DNA of 64,000 nt. Origin: Mobula hypostoma (taxonomy: Eukaryota). Below are positions 1 through 26,700 of this stretch, piece after piece. The notes under the pieces were generated by a model that had not been told where the DNA came from, ran no database searches, and was given only the letters and a program-made list of their open reading frames with translations. Both the position numbers and the translations under genes were made by a program. The DNA is taken from positions 126,792,001-126,856,000 of the forward strand of contig NC_086097.1 of assembly GCF_963921235.1 (NCBI RefSeq). Reading direction: 5' to 3'. The first letter of the stretch is position 1. Each line of letters opens with the position of its first letter.

Positions 1-2346
1 AGCCCATGACCAAAACCATAAGTAGTGATTATTTGGAGGTCTCATTCCTACAGCTAGAGTTGATATGGGCAAATCTGCCACCCCAAGTCAGAGGGTTTAC
101 TGTAGTATTTCCATCCATGTTCTTCTAATGGACTTGGGAAAGGGAACAGAAGGGAAGAGTTTCAGATGGAATGGCTGTAGTGAGGAAGCTATTATCCACA
201 TTCAGATTAGTTTATTGTCATATATACCAGGCTGCAATACATTTCTTTGCTCAGATGAAAGAATTGTGTGTGTACGTAACACACATAACAACTTGTGCAA
301 AGATAGAAATTGGAAAAGTCGTGAGGTAGTGTTCATGGATTCAATGTCCATTCAGAAAATGGATGGCAGAGGGGAAGAAGCTGTTCCTGAATCGCTGAGT
401 GACTGCCTCCTTCCTGATGGTAGCAAAGAGAACAAGGCATGACCTGGGTGATGGGGGTCCTTAATGACTGACGCTGCCTTTTTGAGGAATCGCTCCTTGA
501 AGATGTCCTGGTAAAGAGTATGCATATTAATGAATACATCAATAAATACAACACCGAGTGCAAAAACAACGCGATATAGTAGAATGATTTGGTGCAAAAA
601 AACAATGCTGAAGTGGCAATAAAGATTTTCTTGTACCTGGGTCTTCAGAACACAGAACTATAAAATTGTATCAGAAAACAACTTTAGTGCATAATGTGAA
701 TGAAATGATCAGCTCCACAGGAACTAGATTTCAACTGTGTAATAGGCTTACTCCCTGCTGATAGTGTTTGTATCTATTCCCGGTGGCACTCTGTATTGTT
801 TGCATTATCTGTGCTAGTGCTTGGCTGCTCAGTGGTATCTTTCCATCAATGAGTGGACAGTTTGGTGTCCAGGAATAGAATGGGAAGAAAGGAGTTGTGA
901 AATGGTGTGGATATACCACTTAGGCTTGTTCATGGATCTTGAGCAGGCAATGATCAACAGGGGCATGACTTGACAGTATTCACTAGATCCTACCGAGCTG
1001 GTTTCCCATGGTTCATTACTTTCTCCAAACAGTCTTTCAAAGTCTTATGGGTGCAATCACTTTGGAAGTAATAATTAGTCTGGGCTCATGCATTTCTGTT
1101 ACAATAAATAATGCATTTGTTCACAAGGCCTTCATTTGCTCCAGATCCTGCTGCAATTTTCCATGCTTCCTCATGACTAGTAATGAAGATAACACTGTTC
1201 CCTTACCATTCAAGCAAGCTGGACAACAGGGATTTTGGGAAAGCCTAGTGGGACAAGGTGAGGGCAGAGCCGCAGGTACTGCTATCTACAGGCTTGGGAT
1301 CGTAAAGGCTCTGAAGAGGGAGTCCTTGATTTCCCTGCCTTGGTCCCACATCCACTCGACTCTCCTGGCTTGAAACATGGTACAAAATCACTTTGGTGAC
1401 AGATTTTATTTTAATATATTTGAATTCGTAATGTACTAAAAACAACATTTTGCTCTTTATTTGCTTCTAAGATGTAGTAGTCTTTGGCAATTATTGTCCA
1501 TTCCATATTATCCACAAACCAAGGAACAGTTAAGAATCAAACACATTGGGCGCCGGGGGGGGGGGCGTGGGCGGGGGGGGGAGCGGGGAGGGAGGGATGG
1601 GGTCACATATAAGCCAGACATGTTATGGACAAAATATTTTCTTCCATTAAGAAGGCAGTGAAGTAAATTGATATTTACAACCATCCAATAGGTTTCCTAG
1701 ACACCACTGCAGACATGTTCTTTTAAGTAATGAGCTGAACTTAAATGTCCTTCTTGTGTTCGTTCCACAGTAAGACTGTGTAAAAAGTGAATTATTGGTG
1801 GCCTATCCTTGCAAACCTTCCTCTTCTTTCAGCAGCTGGAAGTCATTGAGTCATTGCTCTTTGGTCATAGATCTAAAGTGGTGACAACTATCTGCCACTC
1901 ACAGTACAGACAAAGTGAATTTCAATTTGATTAGCTTCACTGGAGAGTACAATGCAAGGGCTGCTCTTCAACACTTAATTAGCATTACTGACTGATTCCT
2001 CCTCCGTGGCTTTGCTTGAACTTGTATTTTGTCCCTCTGAACATCATTCCACTGTTCTATATAATTTGTTTTCTTTTCTTGTCAATGCTGCTTGTATAAA
2101 GCTAAGTGCCCATGATGTTGTAAGTTTTCCATTACACCTGTGCACACATGTACTTGTGCGTATGAGAATAAACTCAACTTTGACCTTTGACTTGATTTTG
2201 GCTTTGTCCATAACAGATGGGTAGAATTGGAACAACATTTATTTTCTAAGAATTATGAAAGCTATTGCCGCTTAAGTTTTGGAACGTATCCCTCAAGTTT
2301 TACCTTCATCTTTCAAAAAAAGATGGCATTTTTGTGATTCTTACAG

Positions 2347-2737
2347 ACTCGTGCATCCATATGGATTCCCGACAGAATTCTCCATGGTCACAACCTTTAG
2401 GATGAGAGAAGACACTCCGAGGACGGTGTGGGATTTGTGGGAGATAACTGACAGATATGGTGACAAGCAGTTCCGACTTCGTCTGTACAGTGAGATCAAA
2501 GCTGTTGAAATCTACAGTGTGGCAGCAGTGGGAGGGGGCGTCACCACCTTTGAGAATGTGGAACAGCTGTTTGACCGGGACTGGCACAAGCTCTTACTCG
2601 GTGCGACAAGGACCCAGTTGACTTTATTTGTTGATTGCCAGCAGGTTGGCACAGCTCCCATCCAACTGCTCGGATCCATTGCCATTGATGGAGTTAGTGC
2701 TATAGCTAAAGGAGCAACGACTGATGCTACACTTCCT
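2347..2737 (+). CDS. Collagen exon: TSPN (NC4-like) domain
   Basis: ttacag|ACTC...CCT|gtaagc; [19 protein letters not shown]...[12 protein letters not shown]...LFVDCQQV resembles the COL9A1 NC4 domain. Confidence 0.92.
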
Positions 2738-5700
2738 GTAAGCACCTTGTGTTCTATAATGTCCCGGTCACCAGTTCTTTATCCTCAGAGTTATATAAAT
2801 TAATGTTGAATATGCTTGTAATAACAGTAAATGTGACCATTGTTAATAATGAACTATATTTTGGGACTTTCTAGATTGTTTCATGTAATTTCCAGTGCAC
2901 AAGTGTAAAGGAGAACAAAATTACTCCTACTCCAGATCCGATGCAGCACAAACAAAACACAGTAAGATTAGGAACACAATAATAAATATAAACACAATCA
3001 ATTCAGTATAATTACCTTAGATAGCTTATGTACATAGATGGATTGCATGTCCATAAAGTGATGCTAGGCACAGGAGTGTCAGTACGTAAGGTGATTCTGA
3101 TAGGAAATGATAAAATAGTGGTGTTGAGGGGTGTGGTGGGGCGGGTTAGTGAGTGGAGATCCTTACTGCTTGGGGAAAGTAACTGTTTTTGAGTCTGATG
3201 GTCCGGGTGTGGAAGCTACGTAGCCTCCTCCCTGATGGGAGTGGGATGAGCAGGGTGGGTGGAATCCTGCATGACGTTGCAGGCCCTTTTCTACCACCTT
3301 TCTGTATATTTGCCCTTGATGGCGGGTAGGCTGGTGCTAGTGATGTATTGGGCAGTTTTGATTACCCATTGTAGAACCTTTCTCTCTGCCACAGTGCTGT
3401 TTCTGTACCAAGAAGTGTTGCAGCATGTTAGCATGCTCTCTACTGCACATCTGTAGAAGGACATGAATAAAGACGTGCATAGTCCAGCTTTCTTCACCCT
3501 CCTCAGAAAGTAGAGGTGTTAGTGACCTTTCCTGAATCTGTGGAATGTGTTTCGGGATTATGAGAGGTTGTGCAAGACGTGCACTCCCAGGAGTTTGAAA
3601 CTGTTCACAGTTTCCACTGCTGTGGTAGCGGTGTAAAGAGGGGTGTGAGTGGTGCGAGTTCTCCTGAGGCCGATAACCATCTCCTTTGTCTTGTTGACAT
3701 TGAGGAAAAGTTATTTGCCTGGCACCAGGCCTCGAGCTCTTCCACCCCCTCTCTGTAGGCAAATTTAAATTTAAAGCAACTATCTCATGATGTTTGAATT
3801 CAATTCATTTTTCCTTTTTATGTCTTTTGACATTTTTGACTGAGGGGGATTTGTATGGAGTAAAAGTCATTTGAATTCTTTTACTGTGTGATAATGAGGG
3901 GGTAGCTCAACGAAGCTGGGAGATGTTGCTGTTAGTTACATATGGGTGGGCAGTGTTTATAATTTTCCCTCTTGATATGCCAGTAAAACACAGGTGAAGT
4001 AGCAAAATATTTAAATGCTATAAACCAGACAAAGCACAATAATAATCAGCATTTCAGATTGAAGCCCTACATCCAGATTGTTTAACATAAAGTGCTGACA
4101 ATTCCTTTTCCCCTTACAGATGTTGCTCAGTCTGCTGTATTCTTCCAGATCCCAGCAAAAATAAACTTCCTGTTCCTTAGATAATATTAATAACTCATTT
4201 GGTTCAAGTGGCTAAAAGTGTCCTACCGAGCTGTTGAAGTTCTTTAGGGAAAAGCTGGATGAGGGATGCATTTTACTACTTGTAAGTCACAGAGTTCAGA
4301 GCACTAGTTTCAGACAGTGATTTATATTCACTTGCACAGTAGTGCAGCTTAGTAGAACTGCTGTCTCACAGCTCCAGTGACTTGGGTTTGATCCTGTCCG
4401 TGGGTGCTGTTTGAGTGGAATTTGTATATTCTCCCTGAGACCATGTGGTTTTCAGCCATGTGCTCCAGTTTCCTCCCACATTCCAAAGACACAAATTTGT
4501 AGATTAACTGGCCACTGTCAATTGCACTTGTGTGTTGTGGGTGGTAGAATCGGAGGAATGATTTACAGAGGTAGTTAGGGGAATTGGATTGTGCCATGAG
4601 CTGGCATATACTTGATTGGCTGAATGGCCTCTTTTTAAGCCGTATGGAAAAACGGAAATGTGGTTGTATGCTCCTCTTCAGACTCATTCGTTCTTCTATG
4701 TACCAGGTGGATGTACAACAATTCGAGATCTACAGCAACCCAAACAAGGCGGCTGAGGTATCCTGCTGCAACCTGTCAGGTTCTGTAAGTACACACCCCA
4801 CTGGAGCACATTCCCTATGCCCACTCTCCTAAAATGAAAAGTTTTCACTGTGATTTACTTTCACTTCCTGATTCGGAGCTTTGTGGTGACAGTTTCTGCT
4901 CCTGTGAACTCCCAAAGTCTCATGTTGAACGGAAAAGTTGGTGGGCTTGCTTGCGTACCTCAGTTGTCAGATCAAAGATGAAACCAGCAGAGAGCTGAAG
5001 TTTGTTTTACTTCTCTGACTTTCAGCTTTTTCTATTTCAAAGATATACTTTATTCATAATACAGCGGATTCTGGTCAATTGGGCCATTGGTTAATTGGGG
5101 CAGCCGCTTATTTGGGACTACTCTTAAAGAATCAAAAACTAATCGAGAAAATAGCCGGGATTTCCTTTGTACCCTTGGGAAATTACGTCACTTAAACTGG
5201 GACAGGAGACTGTTGCCAAACGGGTTCTAACTAGTCGATTGCACGCTGATGTCACCACAACAGGTGATGAAATGTTTGTGACCTAACCTCTAGGTTCGGC
5301 AAACAAGCAGCCAACCCGAGCTACCGATCTTCTCTTTCATTTTATCCAACAGATTTGTCAGGCCAGCTTCTCTCTCATGCCCTTTACTTCACTGTAATAC
5401 TGATACACCTGACTTTATCCTCTCCCTCCCAAACTGAAGAGTGAATTCTCTCATATTATGATCACTATCTCCTTCGCGTTCCTTTTCCTTAAGTTCCCAA
5501 ATCAACTCTGGTTCATTATTCAACACGCAATCCAGAATTGCCTTTCTCCTAGTGGGCTCAACAACAAGCTGCTCTAAAAAGCCATCTCATAGGCATTCTA
5601 CAAATTCCTTCTCTTGGGATCCTCACCAACCTGATTTTCCCAATCTACCTGTAGGTTGAAAACTCTCATGACTATCATAATATAGCCCTTTTTACATGCC

Positions 5701-8700
5701 TTTTCTATCTTCTGTTGTAATTTATACGCCACATTCTGGATACTTTTCGGAGGCCTGTATATAACCCCCATTAGGGTCTTTTTTACCTTTGCGATTTCTT
5801 ATTTCTATCCATAAGCATTCCATATCTTCCAATCTATGTCACCTCTTTTGATTTCATTTTTTACCAACAGAGCCACCCCAGCCTCTCTGACTTCCTGCCT
5901 GTCCTTTTGATACAATGTGCATCCTTGGATGTTAAGCTCCCAACCGTGATCTTCTTTCAGCCATGACTCAGTGAAGCCCACAACATCATTCCTGCTAATC
6001 TCTAAACACGCTACAAGATCATCTACCTTATTCCATATACTACGTACATTCAAATATAACACTTTTAGTTCTGTATTCATCACCCTTTTCAAATTTGCCC
6101 CTGTGTTACAGGAAGTTAAATTCTTACTTCTTCCTAAATCTAAACAACAGGAATTCTGCAGATGCTGGAAATTCAAGCAACACACATCAAAGTTGCTGGT
6201 GAACGCAGCAGGCCAGGCAGCATCTGTAGGAAGAGGTGCAGTCGACGTTTCAGGCCAAGACCTTTCGTCAGGACTAACTGAAGGAAGAGTGAGTAAGGGA
6301 TTTGAAAGTTGGAGGGGGAGGGGGAGATTCAAAATGATAGGAGAAGACAGGAGGGGGAGGGATGGAGCCAAGAGCTGGACAGGTGATTGGCAAAAGGGAT
6401 ATGAGAGGATCATGGGACAGGAGGTCCGTGAAGAAAGACAAGGAGGTGGGGGGGACCCAGCGGATGGGCAAGGGGTATATTCAGAGGGACAGAGGGAGAA
6501 AAAGGAGAGTGAGAGAAAGAATGTGTGTATATAAATAAATAACAGATGGGGTACGAGGGGGAGGTGGAGCATTAGCGGAAGTTAGAGAAGTCGATGTTCA
6601 TGCCATCAGGTTGGAGGCTACCCAGACGGAATATAAGGTGTTGTTCCTCCAACCTGAGTGTGGCTTCATCTTTACAGTAGAGGAGGCCGTGGATAGACAT
6701 GTCAGAATGGGAATGGGATGTGGAATTAAAATGTGTGGCCACTGGGAGATCCTGCTTTCTCTGGCAGACAGAGCGTAGATGTTCAGCAAAGCGGTCTCCC
6801 AGTCTGCGTCGGGTCTCGCCAATATATAAAAGGCCACATCGGGAGCACCGGATGCAGTATATCACCCCAGCCGACTCACAGGTGAAGTGTTGCCTCACCT
6901 GGAAGGACTGTTTGGGGCCCTGAATGGTGGTAAGGGAGGAAGTGTAAGGGCATGTGTAGCACTTGTTCCGCTTACACGGATAAGTGCCAGGAAGGAGATC
7001 AGTGGGGAGGGATGGGGGGGACGAATGGACAAGGGAGTTGCGTTCACCAGCAACTTTTATGTGTGTTTCTTCCTAAATCTGTTGTCTCTTTTGTATTTTG
7101 GGGACTCTCGTAACCTCTGCTGCACTCTGCTTTTTAGTTTATCTTCGCTTTACCCAACTGTTTACCTACTATTTAGTTTAAAGACGTATTTTAACCTATC
7201 CCAGCCCTGATAATTGACTTCAACTTAAGAACAAGGCTTAGGCAGTAAAAGTTCATTGAATATATTTGATAAAGCCAAGAAAAAAAGCAGACATTTATCA
7301 TAGCCACAATAGCAAATTAATTGAAATCAAATTCATTACAAAGATGTTTAAATCTTCTGTATAATCAGGATTATTTAAGGGAAGCAATACATTCTGATAC
7401 ATCATTTCCATTCCAGAGAGAATTTATTTATTTTGACTTCTTAGTGAATTTCACTGTTGGAGATTTAATCAGGCTTCCATTGGGTAGAATGTAGTCAACG
7501 TTTTCAAGCACTAATAACAAAATAAGTTTTCTTAGTTTGTGAAACAAAATGGACAGGGACATTAAGCAGAGAATGCCTACATCTATTTATACATAAATTA
7601 GCAAAAAAAAAGAAAAACATATTGTAATTTGTTGACTGTTCCTGCACACTCCAATATAAAAATTTCAAAGATGGAGTATTTATAATGATCAAATAAAGAA
7701 CAAAATGGGGCAACACCATGGCACAGCTGGTAGAAATGCTGCCTCAGAGCTCTAGGTTTTAACCTGCACTGCTTTCTGTTTGAAGTTTGCACGTTCTTCA
7801 TGAGCTCATGTGAGAACCTAAGTTTTCTCTATATGTTTGGGTTTCCTCTCATATTCCAAAGAATTGTGAGTTGGCCCTTTAAAATTACCCCAAAATATGT
7901 TGGTGAGTGGTATAACCTCAGGGAGGTTGATGGGAATGTGGAGCGAATAATAAATGGGATTAATATAGGATTGGTATGAATGCTTGGTTGATGATTAGAG
8001 TAGCCTTTGTGTGCCAAAAAATCTTGTTCCCCTACAGTAGAAGTCTAAAGCATTACAAACAAAAATTGCTAATGAATGATTTTTTTTATAACATACTTCT
8101 AATGCAGAAACAGATCTCTCATGAGATTAAAAATTAATGACATTAAGAGTAGAAACACTCCTACCCGTGTGCTCCATAATTCTGGATTGCTTCATGTCAT
8201 TTTCAGCACACAAGTGAATGAAATAATGGTTACTCCAGATCCAATAGTCACTTAAAAAATAATAGGATAAAGAACACAATAATAAAAAGAAAACACAATA
8301 AATAAAAGCACATAAAATAGCTTATGTGCGTCGATTGTATGTCCACCCAGTGACCTTAGGCACAGGTGTGTTTGTACATAAGGTGACTCTGACAGGAAAA
8401 GATAAAATAGTGGTGGGGGGGGGGATGTGTGGAGGTGTGAATTAATGGGTGGAAGTGTTGATCAGCCGTTCTGCTTGGGGAAAGAAGTTTTTGAGTCGGT
8501 GGTCCTGGCGTGGATACTATGTAGTCTCCTCCCTGATGGGAGTGGGACAAACAGTCCGTGAGCAAGGTAGGTTGGATCCTTCCTGATGTTGTTGGCCTTT
8601 TTCTGGCACCTTTCTGTATACATGGTGGGTAGGCTGGTTCCATGATGCTGGGTAGTTTGACTCCGGTGATGCATTGGGCAATGTTGACTACCCATTGTAG

Positions 8701-11700
8701 AACCTTCCTGTCTGCTGCAGTGCAGTTTCTGTACAATGTAGTGATGCAGCATGTGTAAGCACTCTTTACTGCATATCTATAGAATGAAGTGAGCATAGAT
8801 GTGCATAGTCTAGTTCTGTTCAGCCTCCTCAGAAAGTAGAGGTGTTGGTGAGCTTTCCTGATAGTGTATAATGGTTTTTTTTGGGACCAGAACATGGTCA
8901 AAAGTTGGTTGGTGAAAATGCATTCTGTTTTACATGTTGGTAGCATAAGTTACACAATGAAGCATGTAGTAGTGAGATAATACTTTTGTTGACTGCAGGG
9001 GGTTGTTGGATACACAGGTCCACGGGGGTATCCAGGAGGAAAGGGAGATATTGTAAGTATCTCACTATGTATTATCAATTATATATAGTCATGGAGAAAG
9101 CACTACAGCTCAGAAATGGGCCCTTTAGCATGTCTGCACTGAACGATTATTCTGCTTGGTTCCATTGACCTGCAGCTGGACCATGGCTCTCCATTCTTCT
9201 CTCATCCTTCTACTTGTCCAAACTTCTCCTAAGTGTTGAGATGAAACCTGATTTCATCACTTCCACTGGCAGTTCGTTAGACACTCTCACCACCCTCTTG
9301 AGTGAAGAAGTGCCCTCTCATGTTTCCCTTAAACACTTCACCTTTCAACCTTAACCTGTGACCTCTAGTTTTAGTCTCACCAAACCTCAATGGAAAAAAA
9401 ACGTCTTGCATTTATGCTATCTAAACCCCTAATAATTTTGTATACCACTATCAAATATCCCCTCATTCCTCTATGCTGCAAGGAATGAAGTGCTAACCCT
9501 ATAAGTCATGTTTTATGCACTTTATACAGTCCTGGGTAGGTCTGTAGTCCAGTGTAATTTTTGTGTTGTTTTACGTAGTTCAGTGCAGTTTTTGTATTGT
9601 TTCATGTAGCACCATGGTCCTGAAAAATGTTGTCTCATTTTTACTGTGCACTGTACCAGCAGTTATAGTGGAAATGACAATAAAAAGTGACCTGACTTGA
9701 CTCAAGTCCTGACAGCATCTTTGTAAATTTTCTCTGTAGTTTTTCAATCTTACTGATATCTTTCCTGTAGGTAGGTGACCAGAACAACACACAATACTCC
9801 AAATTAGGCCTCACCAATGCCTTATACAACTTCAGTACACTATCACAACCCCTGTACTCAATACTCTTATTTATGAACCTAATGTGCTGAAAGTTCTCTT
9901 TACTTATCTACCTGTGACACCACCTTCAAGGAATTATGGATCTGTATTTTCAGATTCCTCTGTTCTACCACACTCCTCAGTCCCCTGCCATTCACTCTGT
10001 AACTCAATACCCTGGTTGATCCCACCGAAATGCAACACCTCACAGTTGTCTGCATTAAATTCCATCTGCCATTTTCAGCCCATTTTTCCAGATCCTGCTG
10101 CATGGTTTAACAGACCTCCTTGCTGTACACTACGCCTCCAATCTTGATGTCATCTGCAAATTTGTTGATCCAGTTTACTACATTATCTTCTGGATCTTTG
10201 ATATAGATGGCAAACAACAATAGACCCAGCCCCAATCCCTGTGGCAACCACTAGTTGCAGGCTTCCAGTCAGAGAGGCAACCATCTACTACCTCTCTCCC
10301 TTATGGCTCTTCCCATGAAGCCAATGTCAAATTAAATTTGCTACCTTATTTTGAATGCCAAGAAGCTGAACCCTGTTGACCCAACTTTCCATACAGTTGG
10401 TTAGGAAAGTTCAGTCATATAACAGCACTGTTATTGCTCAGTCATTATAACAACCTATAGTTAAAATATTAGCAACATTTAAGAAATTGTGAAGTGATAT
10501 TTCTAAGTTTTATTTTAAGGGTGAAATAGGAAGACCAGGTGAAGAAGGCAGTGGAGATTCTTTTGGTGAAGTGGTAAGTGAAACTTCATAAAAATTCAAC
10601 ACAATAATCACTCAAGAATTTCATCATCTATTTAAAAATTTGTAAAGATTTCATGTAAATCTGTTTGGAAGATATTTGGTATTGCATGACTAAAGATGAC
10701 TGACAAAGTATAATTCCCTATTTGAACAGTGTTCCAAATGTTAACAACCTGGAGCAAATGAATACACATTATTGCACATCAAGCAAGCCAGAGTTTGTGT
10801 TGTTGTCCCTCTTCACGCCTTGTGGCACATCAGGCGGCAACTTTACCGTTTCTTTAGCATTTTTGCCTGTTTTTTATGAGGCTGAGTTGCTAGCTTGATG
10901 CTCAACCCAGCATGGATAGAAAGTGTGCAAGGAGCCAGCCAGATTTGAACCTGGGACCTCTCACCTCGAAGTCCGGTGTGAATGCCACTACATCACCAGC
11001 CGGCTATAATTAGTTTGTAAATAGGATAAAAACTATAAGATGTATATTGGAGGAAAGAAGTTAGCAATAAATATTAGAACTAAAAAATTACTTAGAAATT
11101 GGTTAGTGCCTCTAAATCTGTACTAACTGGATTGTTCATGACGGGATCTCCTGGTATGTCATTGATAGCTCATGAGGCTCAAGGAAACCAGCCCAAGGAC
11201 TGGGGTGTAAGTCTGTTTGTGCCCAGGTCAGGTGCATCATCCAAGTGGAAAAGGTTGGTGAGGGTCAGGGATTGGAAGCAGGAGCTCATTAGCAAGGCTA
11301 AGCAATGAATAGAGAATTGGTGAGTTGTTACCTTGGTGGCTGGGGAGGAGATGTATATGTGAAGATTGGAAATCAAAGATATGATTATTGTAACCATTAG
11401 TTGGATGATGATGTACTTTGAGGTGATGGTTTGTGTGGTGTGGTGTGCAACTTCAGGGGGTGAGTGTTGGCTATGACTTAGGGGATCAGTGGTCAGTTGT
11501 TATTTAGTGGGGTGGGCTGAGTCAGGCCTGAAGGTTGGTGGGTTGCAGACATGTTGGTAAAATTCCTGCTTGAGATGGGGGTTAGGGTGTTTCAGTGCCC
11601 TAAGGACTTCGCAGTGCTTGAAAAGCCTGCTACTGCATGAAGTGAAGCGATCTACCTGTATCTCAGCCACTGTGAAATCCTCCTTCTGGAGGTGTGGCCC

Positions 11701-14700
11701 AGGGACACTGGATTAACTGAGAATCACCACTGTGACCTCAGGCATCACAGGGACATTGCATCATACAAGCAGTATTCACAAGCAAAACATAAATTAATCA
11801 TAGTTGTACACAATTTTATAAGAAAGAAAAACAGTTTGAACAAAAAACCCAAATTCATTTTTATTGCAAGTTCTTCGGAGTGCCCTAGTGTTGCTAAACA
11901 GTAGTGGTGATTAGGGAGTTTAGGGAGATATTTATTTAGGTAACATTAAGTCAGTGGGCACTTTATTCATTACCTCCTGTGCCCAATAAAGTGACTACTG
12001 AGTATATGTTCATGGTCTTCTGCTGCTGTAGCCCATCCACTTCAAGGTTTGATGTGTTGTGCATTCAGAGATGTTCTTCTGCACACCACTGCTGTAATGC
12101 GTGGTTATATGAGTTGCTGTCGCATTCCTGTCAGCTTGAACCACTCTGGCCTTTCTCCTCTGATTAATAAGATGTTTTTGCCCAGAGAACTGTTGCTCAC
12201 TGGATGTTAGTTTTCTGTTTTTCACACCATTCTCTGTAAACTCCAGAGATTGTAGTGGATGAAAAATCCCAGGATATCAGCAGGTCTAAGATGCGCAAAC
12301 CATCCCATCTGGTATCAACAATTATTCCACAGTCAAGGGCACTTAGATCACATTCCTTTCTCATTCTGATGTTTCATCTGAAAAACAACTGAACCTCTTG
12401 ACCATGTCTGCATGCTTTATGCATTGAATTGGTGCTCCTATAATTGCCTGGTTTGATATTTGCATTAATGAGCAGGTATAGCTAATAAAGTGGCCACTGA
12501 GAGGAGTGTTGAAGCCAGAAGTCAAGTTACAGGATGAAGCGCTCTGATCATGTATTCTGTGGTCTGAGTGGTTTCAATCTGGAGCTATTAGTTTGGGGAG
12601 TGACTGTCTTAGCATTTTTTAACAACAACATTTTTCTGTACACTACTTGCAAAACTTGAAGCACAGAATAACAATTTCACCCTTATGGAACTTGTGAAAA
12701 CAAAATAAACACAAAATGTCTACGGAAAACTGACGATGATTGCAGGCTACACACACAAGATGCTGGAGGAACTCAGCAGGCCAGACAACATCTGTGGAAA
12801 AAAGTACAGTTGACATTTTGGGCTGAGACCCTTTGGCAGGACTGAAGGAAAAAAGATGGGAAGTTGACTGGTGAAAGAGATACAGGGCTGGAGAAGGAGG
12901 AGTCCGATAGGAGGGAACAGAAAGCCATGGAAGAAATGCCCCCCCCCCGCCCCCCGCCAGCTCACCAGTCCCCATACTCTTTTCCCGCTCTCACCTTATC
13001 TCCTTGCCTGTTCATTGCTTCTCTCCGGTGTTCCTCCCCCTTTTCTTTCTTCCATGGTCTTCTGTTCCCTCCTGTCGGACTCCCCCCTTCTCCAGCCCTG
13101 TATTTCTTTCACCAATCGACTTCCCAGCTCTTTACTTCATCCCTCCCCCTCCCGGTTTCACCTGTCACCTTGTGTTTTTCTCTCTCCCCTCCCTCAACTT
13201 TTAAGTCTACTCCTCATCTTCTTTTCTCCAGTCCTTCCGAAGGGTCTCGGCCCAAAATGTCAATTGTGGTACTTTATTTCAATAGCAGCTGCCTGGCCTG
13301 CTGAGTTCCTGAAGCATTCTGTGTGTGTTGCCTGGGTTTCCAGCATCTGCAGATTTTCTCTTGGTTGTGAAATGATTGCAGGCTGTTGGTTCACAGCAGG
13401 AGGCCACTTGATGGATTTGCTTTGCAATTGACAAAGTAATCTCTTCTATCAATGCTTGCAGCTGCCTGGTTACAATAGGAGGCCACTTACAGTGTGTGCA
13501 GATTTAACTGGAAAGTTAACTGGCATTACCTCCTCTTATTTACCCCTCGATCATGACCCCACTAAGGAGCACCAGGCCATTGTCTCCCACACCATCACCA
13601 ACTTTATCCGCTCAGGGGATCTCCCATCCACTGCTACCAACCTTATAGTTCCCACACCTCGCACTTCCCGTTTCTACCTCCTACCCAAGATCCACAAACC
13701 TGCATGTCCTGGCAGACCTATTGTCTCAGCTTGCTCCTGCCCCACCAAACTCGTTTCTGCATACCTCGACACGGTTTTATCCACCCTTGTTCAATCCTTC
13801 CTACCTATGTTCGTGACACTTCTCATGCTCTGAAACTTTTTGATGATTTTAAGTTCCCTGGCCCCCACCGCTTTATTTTCACCATGGATGTCCAGCCCCT
13901 ATATATTTCCATCCCCCATCAGGAAGGTCTCAAAGCTCTCCGCTTCTTTTTGGATTCCACACCTATCCAGTTCCCCTCTACCACCACTCTGCTCCGTCTA
14001 GCGGAATTAGTCCTTACTCTTACTAATTTCTCCTTTGGCTCCTCCCACTTCCTCCAAACTACAGGTGTAGCCATGGGCACCCGTATGGGTCCTAGGTATG
14101 CCTGCCTTTTTGTTGGCTTTGTGGAACAATCTATGTTCCAAACCTATTCTGGTATCTGTCCCCCACTTTTCCTTCGCTACATCGACAACGGCCTTGGCAC
14201 TGCTTCCTGCACGCATGCTGAGCTCATTGACTTCATTAATTTTGCCCCCAACTTTCACCCTGCCCTCAAGTTTACCTGGTCCATTTCCAACACCTCTCTC
14301 CTCTTTCTAGATCTTTCTGTCTCTATCTCTGGAGACAGCTTATCTACTGATGTCTCCTATAAGCCTATTGACTCTCACAGCTATCTGGGCTATTCCTCTT
14401 CTCACCCTGTCTCTTGCAAAAATTCCATCCCCTTCTCGCAATTCTTCCCTCTCCGCCGCATCTGCTCTCAGGATGAGGCTTTTCATTCCAGGACGAGGGA
14501 GATGTCCTCCTTTTTTAAAGAAAGGGGCTTCCCTTTCTCCACCATCAACACTGCTCTCAAACGCATCTCCCCCATTTCACACACATCTGCTCTCACTCCA
14601 TCCTCCCACCACCCCACTAGGAATAGGGTTCCCCTGGTCCTCACCTACCACCCCACCAGCCTCCGGGTCCAACATATTATTCTTTGTAACTTCCGCCACC

Positions 14701-17700
14701 TCCAACGGGATCCAACCAATAAGCACATCTTTCCATCACCCCCCCCCCACTTTCCACAGGGATCGCTCCCTACGCGACATCCTTGTCCATTCGTCCCCCC
14801 ATCCCTTCCCACTGATCTCCCTCCTGGCACTTATCTTTGTAAGTGGAACAAGTGCTACACATGCCCTTACACTTCCTCCCTTACCACCATTCAGGGTCCC
14901 AGACAGTCCTTCCAGGTGAGGTGACACTTCACCTGTGAGTCGGCTGGGGTGATATACTGCGTCCGGTGCACCCGATGCGGCCTTCTATATATTGGTGAGA
15001 CCAGACGCAGACTGGGAGATCGTTTCGCTGAACACCTATGCTCTGTCTGCCAAAGAAAGCAGGATCTCCCAGTGGCCACACATTTTAATTCCACGTCCCA
15101 TTCCCATTCTGATATGTCTATCCATGGCCTCCTCTACTGTAAAGATGAAGCCACACTCAGGTTGGAGGAACAACACCTTATATTCCGTTTGGGTAGCCTC
15201 CAACCTGATGGCATGAGCATTGACTTCTCAAACTTCCGCTAATGCCCCACCTCTCCCTCGTACCCCATCCGTTATTTATTTATATACACACATTCTTTTT
15301 CTCTCTCCTTTTTCTCCCTCTGTCCCTCTGACTATACCCCTTGCCCATCCTCTGTTTTCTCCCCCCCTCCCACTTTTCTTTCTCCCTAGGCCTCCTGTCC
15401 CATGATCCTCCCATATCCCTTTTGCTAATCACCTGACCAGCTCTTGGCTCCATCCTTCCCCCTCCTGTCTTCACCTATCATTTTGGATCTCCCCCTCCCC
15501 CTTCCACTTCCAAATCTCTTACTAGCTCTTCTTTCAGTTAGTCCTGACGAAGGGTATCAGCCCGAAATGTCGACTGTACCTCTTCCTAGAGATGCTGCCT
15601 GGCCTGCTGCGTTCACCAGCAACCTTTATATGTGTTGCTTGAAATTCCAGCATCTGCAGATTTCCTCGTGTTTGAGTTAACTGGCATTCCGGGTTCTTTT
15701 TTTGTAATATAGTTTTTATTGAATTTTCAAAAAGAATACATGAAAAAAAAGAATCTGCCCTCCCCCCTCCCCTTAACCCTCCCCCCCATATATAGTCCTA
15801 CCTAAAAAAAAGAAAAGAGCCGCCTGGGTATTGGAAGGTTTCCACATGCTCCATGGGATTCAAAATAAATTTGGTATAATTATTCGTTACTTTCCCCAAG
15901 TGACCAAAGTCTTTATCGGAGCACTTAAATATGCCATCCTATCTTTTGTAAATAAGGGCGCCAAATATTCAAAAATGTTACATATTTATCTCTTAAATTA
16001 TAAGTAATTTTTTCGAGTGGAATAGAACTAGCCATTTCATTATTCCAACGATCCATACTTAAATACGAATCAGATTTCCAAGTAACTGCTATAGTCTTCT
16101 TAGCTACTGCCAATGCAATTTTTATAAATTCTTTCTGATATTTATTCAATTTAAGTTTCGGTTTTATCCCTTCAATATCACCTAATAAAAATAATACAGG
16201 GTTATGTGGAAGTTGAGTTGCAGTAATTTGCTCCAATAAGATTCTTAAATTTATCCAGAAGGGTTGAATTTTAAAACAAGACCAAGTAGAATGTAAAAAA
16301 GTACCAATTTCTTGATTACACCGAAAACATTTATCAGATAGGCATTCCGGATTCTTGTAGCAACCTCTGAGGTCTAGCATTTTCTATGGTTCAGCACCAG
16401 GCTAGGGAGTTTCAACTTGTTGTTTAAAAAAAATATAGCTGAAAAGTCTGAGAGTTAGATAAAGATATTAGGAGAGTTAAAATATTTAAAGAGGTAAACT
16501 TCATTGAACCAATGCTTGTTCTTCCCCTTTTTAAATTTACCAGCTTTCTGAATTGCCATCTTTTTTCCCACTTTGATTGAAATGTGACAGGGGTTCTCTG
16601 GAGATCCAGGATTCTCAGCAGAGGTGAGAGATCTGGAATACGTGGTAAGCTTTTGCAGTCTCAAACTGCATATTCAAGCAATCAATTCACTACAGCGTGC
16701 GACCTGTTTTATGGTTGTTTCTATATGAATCTTGTTGTCATTAATTGAAACAGCATATAACAATTACTAAAGGTAAAGCAAGCCATGTGAAAGAAGACAG
16801 AATTATAGACTGGTAGGATCTGCTTCAGGAGTCAGAAAGTTCATGGACACCAGACTACGTTACCTCTTGTAATTTACTTGAGGAATGTTGAATGGCAAGT
16901 GGGACAATTTAAAGAGCTTTCAAGGGGTGAACATCAACAAGATGGGCTGAAAGGCCAAAGGATTAATTGATTTTTATGAATAATATAGAATTGTTTCACC
17001 CTTTGAAAGGGATACTTACCAATATAACAGGGAACAGGGTTTTCCGGCCCAGCAAACTGCCTATTTAACAATAGCCTAATCACAAGACAATTTACAATGG
17101 CCAATTAACCAACGAACTGGCACGTCTTTGGACTGTGGATGAAACCAGAACACTGGTGACAGGGAGAACGTACAAACTCCTTACAGAGAGCACTGAAATT
17201 GAACATCGAACTGCAGAATGCCCTGTGCTTAGGGCTATGATACTGTGACTCCCAGATCAAGGACAGCTTCTATCCTGCTGTTATAAATTCATTAAACAGT
17301 TCCCTAATACAATGAGGAGGACTCTTCACCTCACAATCTACCTCATTATGGCATTGCACCTTATTTTCTACCTGCACTGCACTTTTTCTGTAACCATAAC
17401 ATTTGATTCTTTTATTGTTTAATATTATACAACCTCTATGTACTGATGTACTGAAATGATGTGTGTGGATGGTATGCAAGACAAGCTTTTTGCTGTACCT
17501 TGGATATATGGAAATAGTAAATCAATTTACCAATTTTCCTATCTCTGTTTTGGAAACTCTATTAAAGGAATATATAATAGTCTAAAGAATATATAATCTT
17601 CCCAACCCAAAACATTGACTGTCCACTTCCCTCCGCAGATGCTGTCTAACCTACTGAATTCTAAGAGCAGTTTGCTTTTTGTCTGGATTCCAGCATCTTC

Positions 17701-20700
17701 AGTATATTATATCTTCCATATAAAATATATTACTGTTTATAAATAAAAAATCTTTACTATGATACTTTATTTTAGAATATCTGAATTAATGGTTAACATT
17801 TCGCAGTGTTTAGATTTCATTGACAAAAGTTGTTAAGCTGTGGAATACAACCAGAGGATTTAGTTTAGAAACTAATAGGAAATATCTTATTCTTGATGTT
17901 TGATTTTTACTAATCAAATCGTCTTCCTAAAACATAACTACTTTGTAAATCAAAGAATACCTGCAGTATGCAATCTACTCATCTAATACAGGTATTGAAT
18001 AAGTTTTGAGCAAACATGGTTAAACCATACTCTTTCAATACCAATGCATCTGATGGTTATTATGAACACTTACTTTAAGTACAATAGAATTGCAGCTGTT
18101 TTACAACTCCAGTACAAGTAATTGACATCATCCTCTATAGTGGCAAGTCTTAAATATTTTGCATATTTTTTCCATTGACTGTCAAAAATAAGTTGCATGT
18201 TCATAGAAAGCTGTTTTTTTTTTAAATCATTCTTTTAGGGATATGCAGTGTCAATAGGGGATAAAGAGGCGCAAGGCAGAAAGGTAAGTGGAGACCTCGT
18301 TATTGAGTCATTAACATTTATGCACCACAGATCTGAATTTGTTTATGCATCTTCCTTTAGGGTTCACCTGGATTTCCTGGAATGCCTGGTAGTGATGGTT
18401 TACCAGGCAAAGATGTAAGCTGAAATTATAAACAAAAAATTTTTAAAGGGAAATATACAAGAGAAAATAAAAAGATCTTATTTTTTGACTTCAGGGCCCA
18501 CGGGGAATACCAGGAATACAAGGGGAAAGCGGGTCAATGGGACCCAAAGTACGTAGTTTCACATGTCTAATTCTGCTGTGTTTTAAATATTTTTAAAGTT
18601 CACCAGTTTAGACCTCTTTGCTAAGTTATTGGTCTATCAGTGGGACTTGCCAGGGAAACATTTTCTGTAATTTGTACCTAGGGGCAGAAAGGTGATCCAG
18701 GATCCAGAGGACCACAAGGCCCACGTGGTTTATCAGTAAGTTATATTTTATTCTGCATTGAATTTTCTGTGACCTTTCTCAATTCCATTTGGCGGCATAA
18801 TGGAGAAATAGTTGAAAGCTCAATAATATTGTTATGAATGAAGTTCTAGTTTGAAAATCAAAGTTGCTGGTGAACGCAGCAGGCCAGGCAGCATCTCTAG
18901 GAAGAGGTGCAGTCAGCGTTTCAGGCAGACCCCTAGTCCTGACGAAGGGTCTAGGCCTGAAACGTCGACTGCACCTCTTCCTAGAGATGCTGCCTGGCCT
19001 GCTGTGTTCACCAGCAACCTTGATGTGCGTTGCTTGAATTTCCAGTGTCTGCAGAATTCCTGTTGTTCTAGTTCGAAAATGTTTGGTGAGACAAGCTGTG
19101 CTTCAGATACTGGAATAGGGTTTTTCCACAATGCCTGGAGATAGGATGTACATGTTTAACAGGAAATTAAACCAGGTATCCAACTTGTCATCTGCACTTA
19201 TTCTTTGTGACCCAATGGACCCTTTCAAACAGTGAGACCTATTGCTGCAGCCATCCCACAAGACAAAATGGTGGATCCTGAGGGCCTAAGGCCGGTGAAA
19301 ATTGAAAATGGAAATCTGGAGTCTGGAGCAACACACAAACTGCTGGAGGACCTCAGTGGTTCAGCAGCATTTATAGAAGGAAATGAACAGCTGATGTTTC
19401 GAGTCGAGACCCTTCATCTGGACTGAAAGATAGAGAGGAGATAACCCTTATAAAAAGGTGGAGCGATGGGAAAGAAAGAGCCAGCAGGCAACAGGTGGGT
19501 CCAGGTGAGGAGAGTGATAGGCAGATGAGAGAGCATCAGAAGCCGATTTAAAATATTGACTTTGTAGTTTTGCAAACAGTTGGAAATCGCGGTGTTATGA
19601 CTGATTAAGGAAATGGTTTTGACCTCATCTGACTACTTTTCTGGAGCTATTTATAGGTGATGTTTTTTGTTGTTATTCACCAGGGGCTAAAGGGTGATCC
19701 AGGTGAACCTGGAATAGCTGGGGAACCAGGATCTCAGGGAGCAAAAGGCCTACAAGTAAGTGGATTTGCCATTCAGACCATTCTAGGTAATAAATCACCT
19801 CTTTTTGTAATATGTATCGATAGTGTTGTTTTTTTTTTCATTACAGGGTGAGCCAGGTGAAATGGGTCCTGATGGTCAGAAGGTAAGACATCTGTATTGG
19901 AAGTGAAAAAAGAAAACTATCAACCAAATTGACCTGGTGTTAAAATAATGGATCAGGTCTTCCAATGGAGTTTTGGCCATCGGGCTTACCTGGGCCACTG
20001 TGGAGTACCCATCTCCCAGACCGTTTGTACCCAGTTGCACAAGAGCATGGTTCTAATAGTGGCTGGATGGCACAGAGATGAAATCCCATCTTTGGAATGC
20101 CACATCCACCTATGGAGCTGGTGATGAAGATTGTAGAATTCAGAGACATTTAAAGTCTTTAAGTCTTTAAATGTGAAGTAAATCATGAAGTAAATCACAG
20201 TGCTCGACCATGGTTTTCAGTCGGGCACCGGACGCTCGGAGAGATTCGGCGGGGGGGCGGGTGCCCAGTGCTTGGCCGGGGGCCATGGTCGAGTGGTCGG
20301 CGACTTGGGCTGGCTCCCCCACCGGACTTAGTCTGGTGAGGAGGGTGTGAGGACACCCAGCAGGACTAAAGAAAAACAAGACCTGACAAAGGGCAGATGA
20401 GCTTCTTGTGAGCCAACGGCCATCTTCCATGGAAGAGATTAAAGCCTCACCAGGTACCTACGGATCGTATGCTATGCACTTAGTTAGAAGAGACATGATG
20501 AACTTGGGGCTGCACCGTGTGCCTGGACCTGCCCAAGGCCTCCGTCTAAGGAAGGGCCAAGCTCGAAGAAGCAGCCGTGGCTGGAGGCCGACACGGCCTC
20601 GGGCTCGAGTTTGGTGGGGCCGGCAGTGGGTGGTGCCAAGGCTGCCAGCGAGAACAAACTGGAGGACAGGCTGTACTCGGTGCCGTCACAAGATCGAAGA

Positions 20701-23700
20701 AGATGGAAGTGCATAGCCGCCAACCCCAGATTCAGGACGGCACCCACTGACTGACTGACTGAAATCATTAAACATTGTTCTAGAATTTAAAAAAAAATCT
20801 AAAAACACAAAGTTGTGAACAGTCAATTGAAGCAAAATAGTGTTTCAAAAACAGTCTCAGTCACTCCTAATTATTTTTCCTGCAGATCCCATTGAAATCA
20901 GAAATGTTTCAGATCTTGTCAGGGCTCAGGAATCCCAGTTGCCACCGAATCTCATGTCAATATCATGCTTGTTCGATCTTGCCAATTTTTATGCTGTCAC
21001 CTATCTTTGGCCAGTTGGATTGCAAGATTATCAGATAATGCTGCTGTGCTATCCGACTTCTGGAGAAATTATTCAGATGAAGTAGACCGTCCATTAACTT
21101 CTTCGTCCCTCCTAACTTTTGGGGAACTGCTGAAATCTGCTACCCTCATAGTATAACTGCGAGTGAAAATGTGAAAAATAGGCCTTGACAGGCACGCTGT
21201 TTGTTCATCACACACTTGGGTAACTTTGGTAGAGAGTTAGCCTTCCTGCAACTTTGTGTGAAGGAACATTCAGGGTTTTATTTTACTGTCTAAAAAAGGT
21301 AACTTTACAATCCAAATCTTCTTATTAGGGTGAGACTGGAACAACTGGAGCCAAAGGAAAATCTGGACACAAGGTATTTTGTATAAGCTGGAAATAAACT
21401 TAATAATTCTGTTTGAAAATTTTCATTTTTACATATATTTATTCTTTTTCTACCTAGGGTAACCAAGGTGATAAAGGTGACAAAGGACAGGTTTGTAATC
21501 ACATTTTCAAGACAGGTACAAACAATAAAAGTAACAGAGAAGAACTATTTACAGCATATTTCTTTTGAGGTATTAATATCGTTCTTTTGATTTTTTTGTA
21601 ATATTTGTTATTGCAACTCTACTATAAGAGAGTAACCATTTAACTTTGAAATCGTCAAGTCGCAAGTAGAAATTGCCTTTTAAACTCACGAGAGAGCGTT
21701 GGCCATCTACTTTTTGCTGTCGGTGTTTCTGCAGCAGGCAACTTCTTTTTTACAAGGTCAAGTTGCTAGCTCGACGCTCAACCCAGCACGGATGGAAAGC
21801 GCGCCTGGGGAGCAAACTGGGTTCGAACTCGGGAGCCTTCGCTCCAAAGTCCGGAGCTGATGCCACTACGTCACCAGCCGGCACAAAGCATATGTCAGGA
21901 GCATAATCCATGCTCTTCACGTGCCTGTATCTGTGCAGATCCAACAACAATTAAGATGCTTGCCTTTATCTAGGATGAAGCAATCTCTTTAATTGGCAAT
22001 CTATTCGCAACTCTGAACATTAATTTCCCAGATGAAACTTCAGTCCAACGCAGTAGCGGCGTGTACCATCTGCAACATGCCATTTGCCAATTATAACCTG
22101 ATAACACGTCACAAACCCATGACCTCTACCACCAAGGAAGTCAAGGCCAGTGGGCATATGGGAACACCTCTACCTGCAGTGTTCTGGTTACCATCAATGG
22201 ATGGACTGCTTGAGTAGTTTCCCAGCCAAATATTCATAGAGTTGTCATGTCTTGTCTCATAGGTGTGGGAAGCTAGTAATATTATCCCTCCAAATCCAAC
22301 CTAGATAACACTGGGCATGTGACTATTCTGGACAAAAAAACAATATCTTACTGTATAAATCAACATCTGCAAAGTTAAATCAGATAAAACCTTACAGCCA
22401 AAGTAGCTGGAGTAGAAAATTAAACACTTAGATAAAGGTTGGGGTGGAGAGGGAGTATTTTGATAATTCAATATGCAGTTTGGATGGCTGCCTCTGATTG
22501 AATTGACTCACTTTCCTCCAGCCCTTGGAGATCAATTTAAGAATGCTCTTTTTCAAATGTTGTCACTTCTTTCTGAAGATGATGGATTCTGTTTCTGCCG
22601 CTGTTTTGTCTAAGTTTTTCTATTTTTCTCTCATCCATGTGTTTATCTAGGAGTCTCATAAATGATACAAATGTTAATGTATCTGCCTCTACCACCACTC
22701 CTAGCCGAGTGTTCCATGCACGTACCTCTCTCGTGTACAAATTTTACCTTTGACATCCCCCTATACTTTCTATCAATCATCTTAAAATTATGCCCCCTTG
22801 TATTAGGCATTTCCATCCTGGGACAGTCACTGGTTCCCCACTTGATCTGTGCCTCTTATCATTTTGTACACCTCTATCAAGTTACCTGTCATCCTCCTTT
22901 GTTCCAAAGAGAAAAGCCTGAGTTTTCTTCATGTAGACATGTTCTAGCTTGTTAGCCTGTTTTACGCTGTTCTTACAAATGTAAAGGCCCCTCTCATTGG
23001 TGAATACTGAAGCAAAGTATTCATTAACAACTTCCTGTACCTCCTGCAACTCCAGCATGTTTCTTCTTCATCCCTGATCAATCCTACCCACACTCTAATC
23101 ATTACCCTGTTCTTCACATACATGTGGAATGCCTTGGGGTTTTCCATAATTCTACTCACCAAATCCTTCCCATGTCCCCTTCTACCTTTCCTAAATCCAT
23201 TCTTAAGCTTCTACCTTGTAACTCTCTAGAACCATATCTGATCCTTGCTTCCTTAACCTTAAGTAAGCTTTTTTTTCTTGACTAGATATTCCACATCTCT
23301 TGTCAACCATGGCTCCTTCACCCTATCACCTTTTCCTTGCCCCAAAAAGGACAAACCTCTCCAGAACCCACGCAAGTACTCTCTTAACAACTGACTCTCT
23401 TCTGTTGTGCACTTCCCTGAGTACATCTATTTCGAGCATATCCTTCCATGGGTACTGAGCAGACAAAAAAAAATCTCTGCTCTCCTTTTCTTACCTGAGA
23501 AGAGAGATCTTTATATTGTATTTACTCACCTGGGCGTTCCTCAGTGCTGCAGAAATTACCCCCATTTCCTGATGAGCTGAGGACAAGAAACACATTCAAA
23601 AATATTTGCAAAATCTTGCTACAAATTTAATCACAGTGCTGTTTATATGTCTGTACATACTGTGTCCTTGTAATCTATCTGCCCATTTCGTATGAAAAGA

Positions 23701-26700
23701 AGAATGAGTTCTGCAACTACACAAAACCATTATTATATAGATCATATTACTGAGACTATTTTTCATGTAATTCTAAACTGGCGGGCATTTCTGGCCCACA
23801 TGCAAACACCAAACAAAAAAGTAGATTAAGCTAAATGAGTAGAAATATGAGTAACTTTTCCTCAATATTTGTATCCGTTACATGGCTTTACACAAATGGA
23901 AAGTCTAACATACTGTATTCATTTACAGGATAGTTTAGTCTTTTGATAATTAAATTGTGCCCTGGAGGCAGTTACATGTAGTAATAGAATTTCATTTTAT
24001 TTGAATACAAGGAGTTGAATTCAGTCAATATGCTGGAGGAAGATGATAAATATACAGTAAATTATTGTAAAGGATTTTTCTTATTGTTCAATCACAGATG
24101 TGATTTATAGTCCATCCCTAATTGCCCCTGAATAGAGCAGGCAGTTAATAGTCAACCTCACTGATGGGTCAGAATGAGTAAGAGTTGCAGATTTCCTTTT
24201 CTAAAGGACTAAAGTATGTTTTTATAACAATGGATAGTTTCAAAGTCAGTTACCCAGGCTTGGCATTTAGAAAGAAATCTTATTTATATAGTTAGTCTTA
24301 AGTTCCCCAGCTGCCATATCTCTAGATCTGTCATTCAGAACTCTGGCTGGTAGTGCAGTAACTTAACCATTATGTTACAGTAATTAAACGGTTTTGAAGG
24401 TTAGATTTTTTAGGATTTTTAACAAGGAAGTGGATACATTTGTTTTGAAAGTTTAAGGAGCTGGCACAGAAGAGAGGAGCCCTGGGGCAGATTAATCACT
24501 GTCATATTGCTTTCTATTGCTAATGACTGGCAGGGCAGATTTGAGGTACCAAGGGGTTTACTCTTTCTTGTGGGATTCAGTGAACAAGAGGGGAGGGATT
24601 GTTCAAGGACAGAAGGTAACCAGATTCCATATTGGAAAATCAGGATTCCAGGATGATGTCTGCACTTATTTGTGGAGAATCTGGCATCAGTCTGATCACT
24701 ATCTTAATGAGACTTAGCACATGAGTTAAAGTCTACACTCATGCCTTTTCCTGACTACTAACATTTTCTAGTAACCTGTTGGATGGCACAGTGCTGTGAA
24801 AGCCTACAAGCTTCTTTGCTCCAATCTATAGCCATGGAAGCAGTCTGAATTTTTCTGGAGCTTTCAGACACTGGGTGACTGCTGCTGCTGCTGGAATGAA
24901 AGCTGCAAGTTTGGCCATCAGATACTACATAGCCATTGGTTCCTGATGTGCAAACATAGCGTCCATGTTATGGGTTGGATGTTCTGTCCCCGGCTTCTGC
25001 ACTCCCCAACACTGCTCCAGCCCCGGGCTTCATTTAGGCCAGAAACAAAATAGTTCCCAACTGTCAGAGGAGAGAGTGGACTGCTGATTAACTGGAGCTT
25101 CATGTGCTCAATAGAAGGCACCTTGAAAGGAAGTAAATAGAAGGACAAGTTCATTAAAGGGACAGAAACTTTAAGGAGATTAAATGTAAAATTCAGATGG
25201 CCGTGGCAAGGCAGAGGTTCAGTGTGCATAGTTGAAATTTGGGGCAGCTGAGAGCAATGTGGGGAATTGGAACTGAACTAAGAATTCAGGGTAGATTTAA
25301 GACAAAGGTTGACAGGAGTGTAGGCATTCCAGTGCAGAAGGTGCACTTTAGGGGGTAGCATCCATTTTGATCTTGTGGGAGCTTTAGACTTGTATTTGAA
25401 TCATAACAAAATGAATTTGGAGCACCCAGGTTCTGTAACCGAGCTAGAAGATCTGTACAGACTCTCAAACTCAGTAGCAGAAACAACAAGATATAAGGAT
25501 CAGGTTTATTATCACTGATGTTGGTCAGTAAATTTGATGTTCTGCTGCATAAGTATGAGACACAAAATACAGTATTGTAACTTAAAAATAGTGAAAAGGA
25601 GGAATAATGTGGTAGCATTCATGGATTTGTGAACTGTTCAAAAATCTGATTGCAGAGGGGAAGAAATTGCTTCGGAATGTATTTCTTCTAAGGACCTTTC
25701 CATATTTCCAAGTCTCCATAGACTTGTTGCTGTAGACTAGAAAATAGATTATCATTTGAATCTGCAGTTAAGAATTCCTAAAGCTATAGGAAGTGTAGTT
25801 AAGAAATCCTAAAGCCCTTTTACAGCTGAAAATGAATAATACAGTAGCAGTAAATGATAAAATGTTCATAGCTGAACTCTACTTATGGTTTGTATATGTT
25901 TTTGACAGCTAAGTTGCAGCAAATCTTTGTTTTAATTTAGCCTGGCATACATGGTCCACCAGGAAGCATTGGAACAGCAGGCAGACGAGGTGTACCTGGA
26001 GTACCTGGACCACCTGGATTCCCAGGGCCTGTAGGAGAGACTGGTGAACCTGGACCAAGAGGGGAGCCGGGGCCTGTAGGAGTACATGTACGTCCAAAAG
26101 CATCTCGCAAGAGCTCTCGGAAAATAAATAGCATTCTGATTAATCTGCCGTCATCAAAGGATAATGTTCAGGCTTTTCCAAGGTTTTCTGATTCCTTTAT
26201 TTTAAAGTATAATATTATTCTTTAACAGTATTTAGGTGCTGAAATAGGGCTGCATATACACACTGCCCTAATCAGTTGACTGGCCTATGCTCAATTTAAC
26301 AAAAGCTCATTTTGGCTTATTTCAAGGAACTCTGCTGCACTTGTCAGATTCTATTTTACATGGAAAATTATTTTACACCTTCTTTAGTGAGTACTCAGTA
26401 ACTATTGCAGCATGGCCAGATTTAACTGATAGCTAAATCTCATTTGATGAACCAATCAGACTTTTTCCCATTCACTTGAAGTACAATCCAGTTGTAGTAC
26501 AAGGTAATTTTTGTTCTGTTAGTAAAGTAAATAATCTCAAATTTAAAAATTGTGGCTCATTAACTATCCATTTTAATGTGGTTGTTTCTTCCCCCCCCCC
26601 CCATTGGCTATTTGTCACTGATTTTTTAATCTTTGATTTTAATCCAGAAAACAAAAGAATCTACCTCCAAAGTTGATCCTAGGATCAAGATTGCCTGTGA

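Follow-up and report, generated by a model that had tools for sequence, protein, structure and literature searches.

FACIT collagens bind to the surfaces of collagen fibrils and have an N-terminal TSPN domain and a short C-terminal helix, COL1, which follows the non-collagenous domain NC2, carries two imperfections in its Gly-X-Y repeat and ends in a Cys-x4-Cys motif. It is at NC2 that their chains come together, and from there the N-terminal helix extends towards the N-terminus, so that the N-terminal end folds last. Variation in the length of FACIT helices is known in kind, and collagen XXI has the layout TSPN, cysteine linker, a single long COL2 helix, NC2 and COL1. Two reviews describe NC2 as driving trimer formation in collagens IX and XIX (PMC7824840, PMC7034273). 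Here we describe a collagen gene in a window of 64,000 nucleotides of Mobula hypostoma DNA (the whole stretch analysed; contig NC_086097.1 of RefSeq assembly GCF_963921235.1, positions 126,792,001 to 126,856,000, forward strand). Judged by its predicted architecture the gene is a FACIT collagen with a TSPN-COL2-NC2-COL1 layout, and comparison of its sequence with those of orthologues indicates that an N-terminal change in COL2 is real and specific to the stingray lineage. The explanation we favour, at roughly even confidence, is a working FACIT in which COL2 has lost length at its N-terminal end and the N-terminal exons that remain are spliced as a non-helical linker.

The gene and its shortened COL2 domain

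The gene model has 18 exons on the forward strand (2347-30973) that together give 570 open codons with no stop or frameshift, and the window contains zero N bases. Exon calls came partly from tblastn with five orthologues. The model encodes, in order, TSPN, COL2, NC2, COL1, the Cys-x4-Cys motif and a short NC1; it begins at the laminin-G-like TSPN exon (2347-2737), the gene's 5' start and earlier exons lying upstream of the window. The TSPN exon is still open, as an earlier note on this DNA had said, and its 130 aa are 90% identical to the Hemitrygon akajei model P0002. An exon of 78 bp (4707-4784), found by tblastn with the five orthologues, carries the end of TSPN and a Cys-Cys pair.

In shark, skate, frog and reptile orthologues COL2 is a nearly unbroken run of about 106-113 triplets (108-113 with at most one break in sharks and most frogs). 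In the window only the 57 C-terminal triplets, next to NC2, are unbroken. Of 18 orthologues, 11 have a distance of 363-373 aa from the cysteines at the end of TSPN to NC2, four have 352-358, one has 322 and one 243, and the eighteenth was not parsed; the distance is 250 aa in the window model and 199 aa in that of Hemitrygon. Two blocks, about 118 residues together, are missing from the window. The first, a cysteine-bearing linker with about 24 triplets (skate residues 338-437, some 100 residues), is encoded by orthologues where the window has the intron 4785-8998; the second is an exon-sized block of 18 residues (skate 474-491) that would lie in the intron 10574-16590, which contains repeat elements.

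A profile scan tolerating stops detected no remnant of either block in the matching introns. Five exons used as controls were each the top match in their own intron, four of them scoring 49-65 and the exon at 18239 scoring 26.0; the latter is about the background maximum (26.6), so remnants more decayed than this could escape the scan. Two of 15 scanned segments, those above the background maximum (6474-6509 and 6742-6777) were rejected as remnants, having no AG/GT ends and lying within a repeat, of which a reverse copy is found near 15040-15330. Each of the two introns from which exons are missing contains a copy of a high-copy repeat, one on the forward strand at about 13540-15600 and the other on the reverse strand at about 6150-7050.

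In the Hemitrygon model, the 78-bp exon is joined to the equivalent of the window's exon 10520 and this in turn to the equivalent of exon 18361 (exons are named by their first position); exons 8999, 16591 and 18239 are not in the model. The equivalent of exon 18361 has a Gly>Ala change of its own, and one of the two cysteines after TSPN is gone. Turtle, gavial and P0028 models, all unverified, are also short in N-terminal COL2, and this end of the domain may be generally labile across the family. Parts of COL2, mostly N-terminal, are absent from the models P0028, P0014, P0022, P0067 and P0144, either through real loss or because exons were missed. Our literature search, in which coverage of subscription papers was largely wanting, found nothing on this gene or on collagen shortening in stingrays; collagen is not a term in the main text of PMC3296468 or in four supplementary files of PMC10208646.

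Glycine losses in the remaining N-terminal exons

Four exons remain of the N-terminal part of COL2. Exon 8999 (8999-9052, 54 bp) keeps glycine in 6/6 triplets. Exon 10520 (10520-10573) keeps five of six, a Gly>Asp change giving the motif EEGSGD, exon 16591 (16591-16644) three of six, with Ala, Arg and Glu instead, and exon 18239 (18239-18283) three of five, with Val and Glu. The earlier note, which described the latter three exons, read them correctly: they measure 54, 54 and 45 bp, are bounded by AG..GT, lie in phase 0 and are open, and six of their 17 triplet glycines are replaced (GAT, GCA, AGA, GAA, GTG, GAG), each by a codon one base from GGN. The next eight exons (18361, 18495, 18682, 19684, 19847, 21329, 21458 and 25941; 18361-26087) make up the intact C-terminal COL2 and have lost none of 55 (39/39 kept in the first seven and 16/16 in exon 25941-26087). 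The clustering is tighter than chance would give, with P = 1.4e-4 for six of 78 triplets falling inside 12 consecutive ones and P = 2.9e-4 for all falling in the first 22. The polarised decay described in the note is only partly confirmed, since the note overlooked exon 8999 further upstream; with that exon included 6/23 glycines are lost, and the gradient is not monotonic. Nor were the three exons ancestrally consecutive, since in orthologues the 18-residue block separates exons 10520 and 16591.

At the five sites substituted in exons 16591 and 18239, all 14 orthologues with residues there have Gly (15 were aligned, Hemitrygon having a gap), and the losses are therefore not an old conserved interruption common to vertebrates, which the earlier note had named as the contrary outcome. 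The substituted site in exon 10520 is Gly in 13 of 15 orthologues, Asp in Hemitrygon and Glu in Scyliorhinus. In exon 8999, 5/12 X/Y residues are absent from every skate and shark. In a comparison of changes at Gly (6/17) with changes at X/Y positions (3/26) the excess at Gly is not significant (P 0.12), and we accordingly make no claim of active selection against the helix.

Assembly error, in the substituted bases or as missing exons, is the least likely explanation and one we consider scarcely credible. The bases are read from the assembly. X5 contigs (DNA of organism B) cover all three exons, which are thus present in a close relative; they differ from the window at 11/604, about 12/750 and about 22/1287 letters. 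These 45 differences compare with 43 expected from shared codons and 49 from errors in the window, values too close to discriminate. Against it, the independent Hemitrygon assembly has the same Asp and lacks the same blocks, the window is free of N and the model of stops and frameshifts, and errors would not single out triplet glycines in three exons.

The remainder of the gene appears well kept: TSPN, NC2, COL1 and the Cys-x4-Cys motif are intact. NC2, with the pattern Cys..Cys-x3-Cys-Pro, and the start of COL1 are encoded at 27554-27730 (92% identity to Hemitrygon), followed by two COL1 exons (28804-28894 and 28991-29068) and a last exon (30779-30973) with the end of COL1, the Cys-x4-Cys motif, NC1 and the stop. 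The COL1 imperfections are common to orthologues: one triplet is short (exon 28991) and another is long (exon 30779). A relative-rate count of window-only and skate-only changes at sites conserved in sharks gave ratios of 12:4 for the four N-terminal exons, 12:9 for TSPN, 11:13 for downstream COL2, 5:7 for the NC2 exon and 3:12 for the last exon; thus TSPN, downstream COL2, NC2 and COL1 have no window-side excess of changes. The change rate in the N-terminal exons (12/59) exceeds that in downstream COL2 (11/132; Fisher P 0.03), which gives modest support to a relaxation confined to the N-terminal exons. The same figures bear on decay of the whole gene into a pseudogene, which we judge very improbable. 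Large exon losses would fit such decay, as would the Hemitrygon model with its lost cysteine, further Gly>Ala change and stop directly after Cys-x4-Cys, but 570 codons are open over 18 exons, all 55 downstream glycines are kept, and the changes show no window-side excess outside the N-terminal exons. Where P0002 stops right after the Cys-x4-Cys motif, the window continues for 19 more residues.

Inclusion or skipping of the N-terminal exons

Under the explanation we favour, loss of the cysteine linker and of the first helix exons would have ended the requirement for a full-length rod. That the linker went first is a guess, and the cysteine lost in Hemitrygon would fit an orphaned partner. The four remaining exons would still be spliced, at least in part of the mRNA, and their 22 triplets would form a frayed, mostly non-helical spacer of about 66 residues between TSPN and a helix of 171 residues, with selection retaining splice sites and frame and no longer the glycine register. 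Starting at NC2, the helix would run through 57 unbroken triplets before a stretch of 12 triplets with six breaks; further out, the 10 triplets without a break (exon 8999 and the start of exon 10520) would probably be too short, and too far from a nucleus, to fold. A glycine substitution delays the helix N-terminal to itself, according to PMC9320522. The earlier note's proposal of a shortened FACIT with its N-terminal helix freed from constraint is supported, and better than the note itself could show, with about 118 residues gone and the Hemitrygon model further along; the simple polarity is broken by exon 8999.

The splice signals and open frames of the four exons lean towards inclusion rather than skipping. 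Their donors match 6, 7, 6 and 8 of 9 consensus bases (the last being that of exon 18239), compared with 5-8 for the other 13. We simulated neutral decay, accepting runs that gave the Gly and X/Y changes observed and allowing 0.07 indels per substitution (from 8 gaps and 116 other letters in eight X5 contigs). According to the exon set, 0.021-0.061 of accepted runs kept GT/AG, an open frame and the exact length together; when donor positions +3 to +5 were also required the joint probability was 0.005-0.03. Additionally, X/Y residues unseen in skate or shark are not elevated, at 8/34 in exons 10520, 16591 and 18239 against 28/110 downstream.

Several observations weigh against this explanation. 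The 12:4 ratio is not significant, either alone (binomial P 0.077) or against 11:13 (P 0.10), and the X/Y count fits neutrality too (about 12 expected, 95% range 4-21; P 0.21 for 8 or fewer). Exon 16591 has a proximal pyrimidine tract of 0.47, the weakest among 17 scored acceptors downstream of the TSPN exon. Mutation rates in the simulation were assumed and its ancestor was approximate. Given the detection limit of the scan, exons whose splice sites are broken could have escaped it, and those that survive would then be a pre-selected set. The Hemitrygon model drops three of the four exons, and exon 8999 retains all six glycines. Inclusion is predicted from sequence; read mapping over 2300-19900 (X10, X11, X15 and X5; four of 24 runs) was dominated by repeats, and of its joints the 15 listed, with 6280 more beyond the listing, included none at an exon boundary. 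Cover in X10 was low in the bins holding 18239-18735 (1.14) and 16591 (0.13), which are bins that cannot be assigned to exons.

Some of these observations would also be expected if exons 8999, 16591 and 18239 are mostly skipped and exon 10520 is kept, the skipped exons being silent remnants that decay towards deletion. The product would have TSPN, one short interrupted exon and the C-terminal helix, and exactly this join is present in the Hemitrygon model. The weak acceptor of exon 16591, the X/Y count and the roughly 118 neighbouring residues already lost are all in keeping with skipping, and triplet exons in phase 0 can drop out in register, as PMC9320522 describes. However, the GT/AG ends, lengths and frames are all intact, an outcome with a probability of 0.02-0.06 under neutrality, and the donors equal those of other exons. 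Gene models can also miss short divergent exons; P0141 and P0144, two models that are almost identical, disagree in just this part of the chain. We regard skipping as possible and the less likely of the two.

Collagen IX alpha1 has a short form made from an internal promoter, and the earlier note had offered such an isoform as an alternative. Here a short chain would start from exon 18361 and everything upstream would be relaxed; glycine loss in this genome does end at the 18283/18361 boundary. This alternative found no support, and we think it very unlikely. TSPN is not accelerated (12:9), the Hemitrygon model spans a long N-terminal region through TSPN, and the intron before exon 18361 is only 77 bp. 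A strict scan for an ATG-to-donor first exon with the hydrophobic core of a signal peptide found none in five introns (background one match per 96 kb), and a search with NC2 returned no form without TSPN among four matches, which is weak evidence.

Among the four N-terminal exons, 10520 alone is present in both the window and the Hemitrygon model, and a rather unlikely possibility is that it is turning from helix into a glycosaminoglycan attachment site. Five of six shark rows have the motif EEGSAG, lying inside the helix; skate has EEGSGG, and the window and Hemitrygon have EEGSGD. Scyliorhinus has an independent Glu at the same triplet; the Asp would both break the helix and put an acid beside Ser-Gly. 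According to PMC13038410, xylosyltransferase needs Gly at -1/+1 of the serine and is helped by acidic neighbours, and the model substrate of that paper contains EEEGSG; the same paper states that no consensus predicts glycanation. EEGSGD matches these preferences and is a predicted site only. Counting against it, acidic Ser-Gly pairs are common (4-7 per chain in the nine relatives scanned), and the Ser-Gly is older than the Asp. Collagen IX alpha2, through its NC3, is among the proteoglycan collagens. The likeness to collagens XV and XVIII would lie in a Ser-Gly in acidic context outside the helix, whereas this gene lacks the multiplexin architecture and its site is predicted from sequence. 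Collagens XVIII and XV bear heparan sulphate and chondroitin sulphate (PMC4859157). Were the possibility true, selection would have favoured unfolding to expose the site, making a part-time proteoglycan of a rod-like FACIT, and the decay of the flanking exons would be a by-product.

Family placement and surrounding sequence

The TSPN exon matches the collagen IX NC4 structure 2UUR (E 9e-25, 90 bits). The Laminin_G_3 Pfam domain scored below the cut-off on P0002 and P0004 and was not matched by the lone window TSPN exon. A protein search with this exon gave 23 matches, among them Hemitrygon akajei at 90% identity, skate and sharks at 52-75%, and coelacanth, frogs, turtles and gavial at 52-62%; in this search of limited reach, no mammal was among the 22 named matches, and no further batoid orthologue appeared among the 12 and four matches of two other protein searches. 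Databases label these orthologues 'collagen alpha-1(IX)-like', 'alpha-2(IX)-like' or 'alpha-1(XXII)-like', or leave them uncharacterised. In a quick tree of 62 TSPN rows (SH-aLRT support) the window is sister to Hemitrygon (99), then joins skate (93), within a clade of 16 rows (99); the orthologue group includes P0002 (Hemitrygon), P0004 (Amblyraja), P0003 (Heptranchias), P0010 (Latimeria), frogs, turtles and gavial. The tree's nearest outgroups, which carry no database names, include VWA-TSPN proteins (P0045, P0046) with the same NC2 cysteine pattern, the fork having a support of 92.

The window and its orthologue group have NC2, COL1 and Cys-x4-Cys in common, with TSPN 52-90% identical, and differ in the roughly 118 residues fewer and the six glycine losses in 12 consecutive triplets of the window; in COL2 of the others no more than two glycines are lost, each in isolation. 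COL9A1 resembles the gene in its TSPN/NC4 head and its NC2-COL1-NC1 end, and has a COL2 similar in length to this gene's ancestral one. Nevertheless, sequence comparison indicates that the gene is not COL9A1: the COL9A1-type protein P0069 scores 301 bits on 2UUR (90 for the window) and falls in another clade of the tree, and the gene's orthologues have no COL3/NC3 between TSPN and COL2. In the order of its domains this gene group resembles collagen XXI. Unlike collagens XXI and XXII, which are VWA-TSPN FACITs, P0002 and P0004 lack VWA and have an acidic Ser/Thr/Gly-rich region in its place; for the window gene, whose own N-terminal exons lie beyond the window, lack of VWA would be read from these two models only. 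Together this points to the FACIT subfamily that databases label collagen IX- or XXII-like being a separate clade. P0045, P0046, P0067, P0074, P0082, P0141 and P0144 are sister TSPN collagens with the same NC2 cysteine pattern, some bearing VWA, which suggests a wider FACIT subfamily. The predicted protein P0011 fuses Pfam PF00868 to the N-terminal part of this collagen; it is probably a merged gene model, from which a transglutaminase gene may be suspected next door. Against the PDB the NC2 stretch matched no collagen at E up to 10, and an ESM Atlas search returned generic TSPN/LamG clusters only.

Elsewhere in the window, a non-LTR retroelement on the reverse strand (60108-63547) has two overlapping open reading frames, of 833 and 360 aa, that match RVT_1 and zf-RVT. 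An open frame of 816 aa (46771-49221, reverse strand) resembles an endonuclease/reverse transcriptase, putatively of the LINE family. A CpG-rich stretch at about 51000-51800 has open reading frames of 113-156 aa on both strands, which gave no credible Pfam match, and is possibly the start of a neighbouring gene; open reading frame and Pfam scans of the window identified no neighbour gene at 31000-64000.

FACITs differ mainly in the number of their helix segments and interruptions, and here such a change would be caught in progress. Its effect on the animal may be small. With outgroups that keep the full 112 triplets and a relative in which the change has gone further, the gene could serve to test how non-collagenous domains originate, whether through exon loss, skipping or the decay of glycines while the exons continue to be translated.

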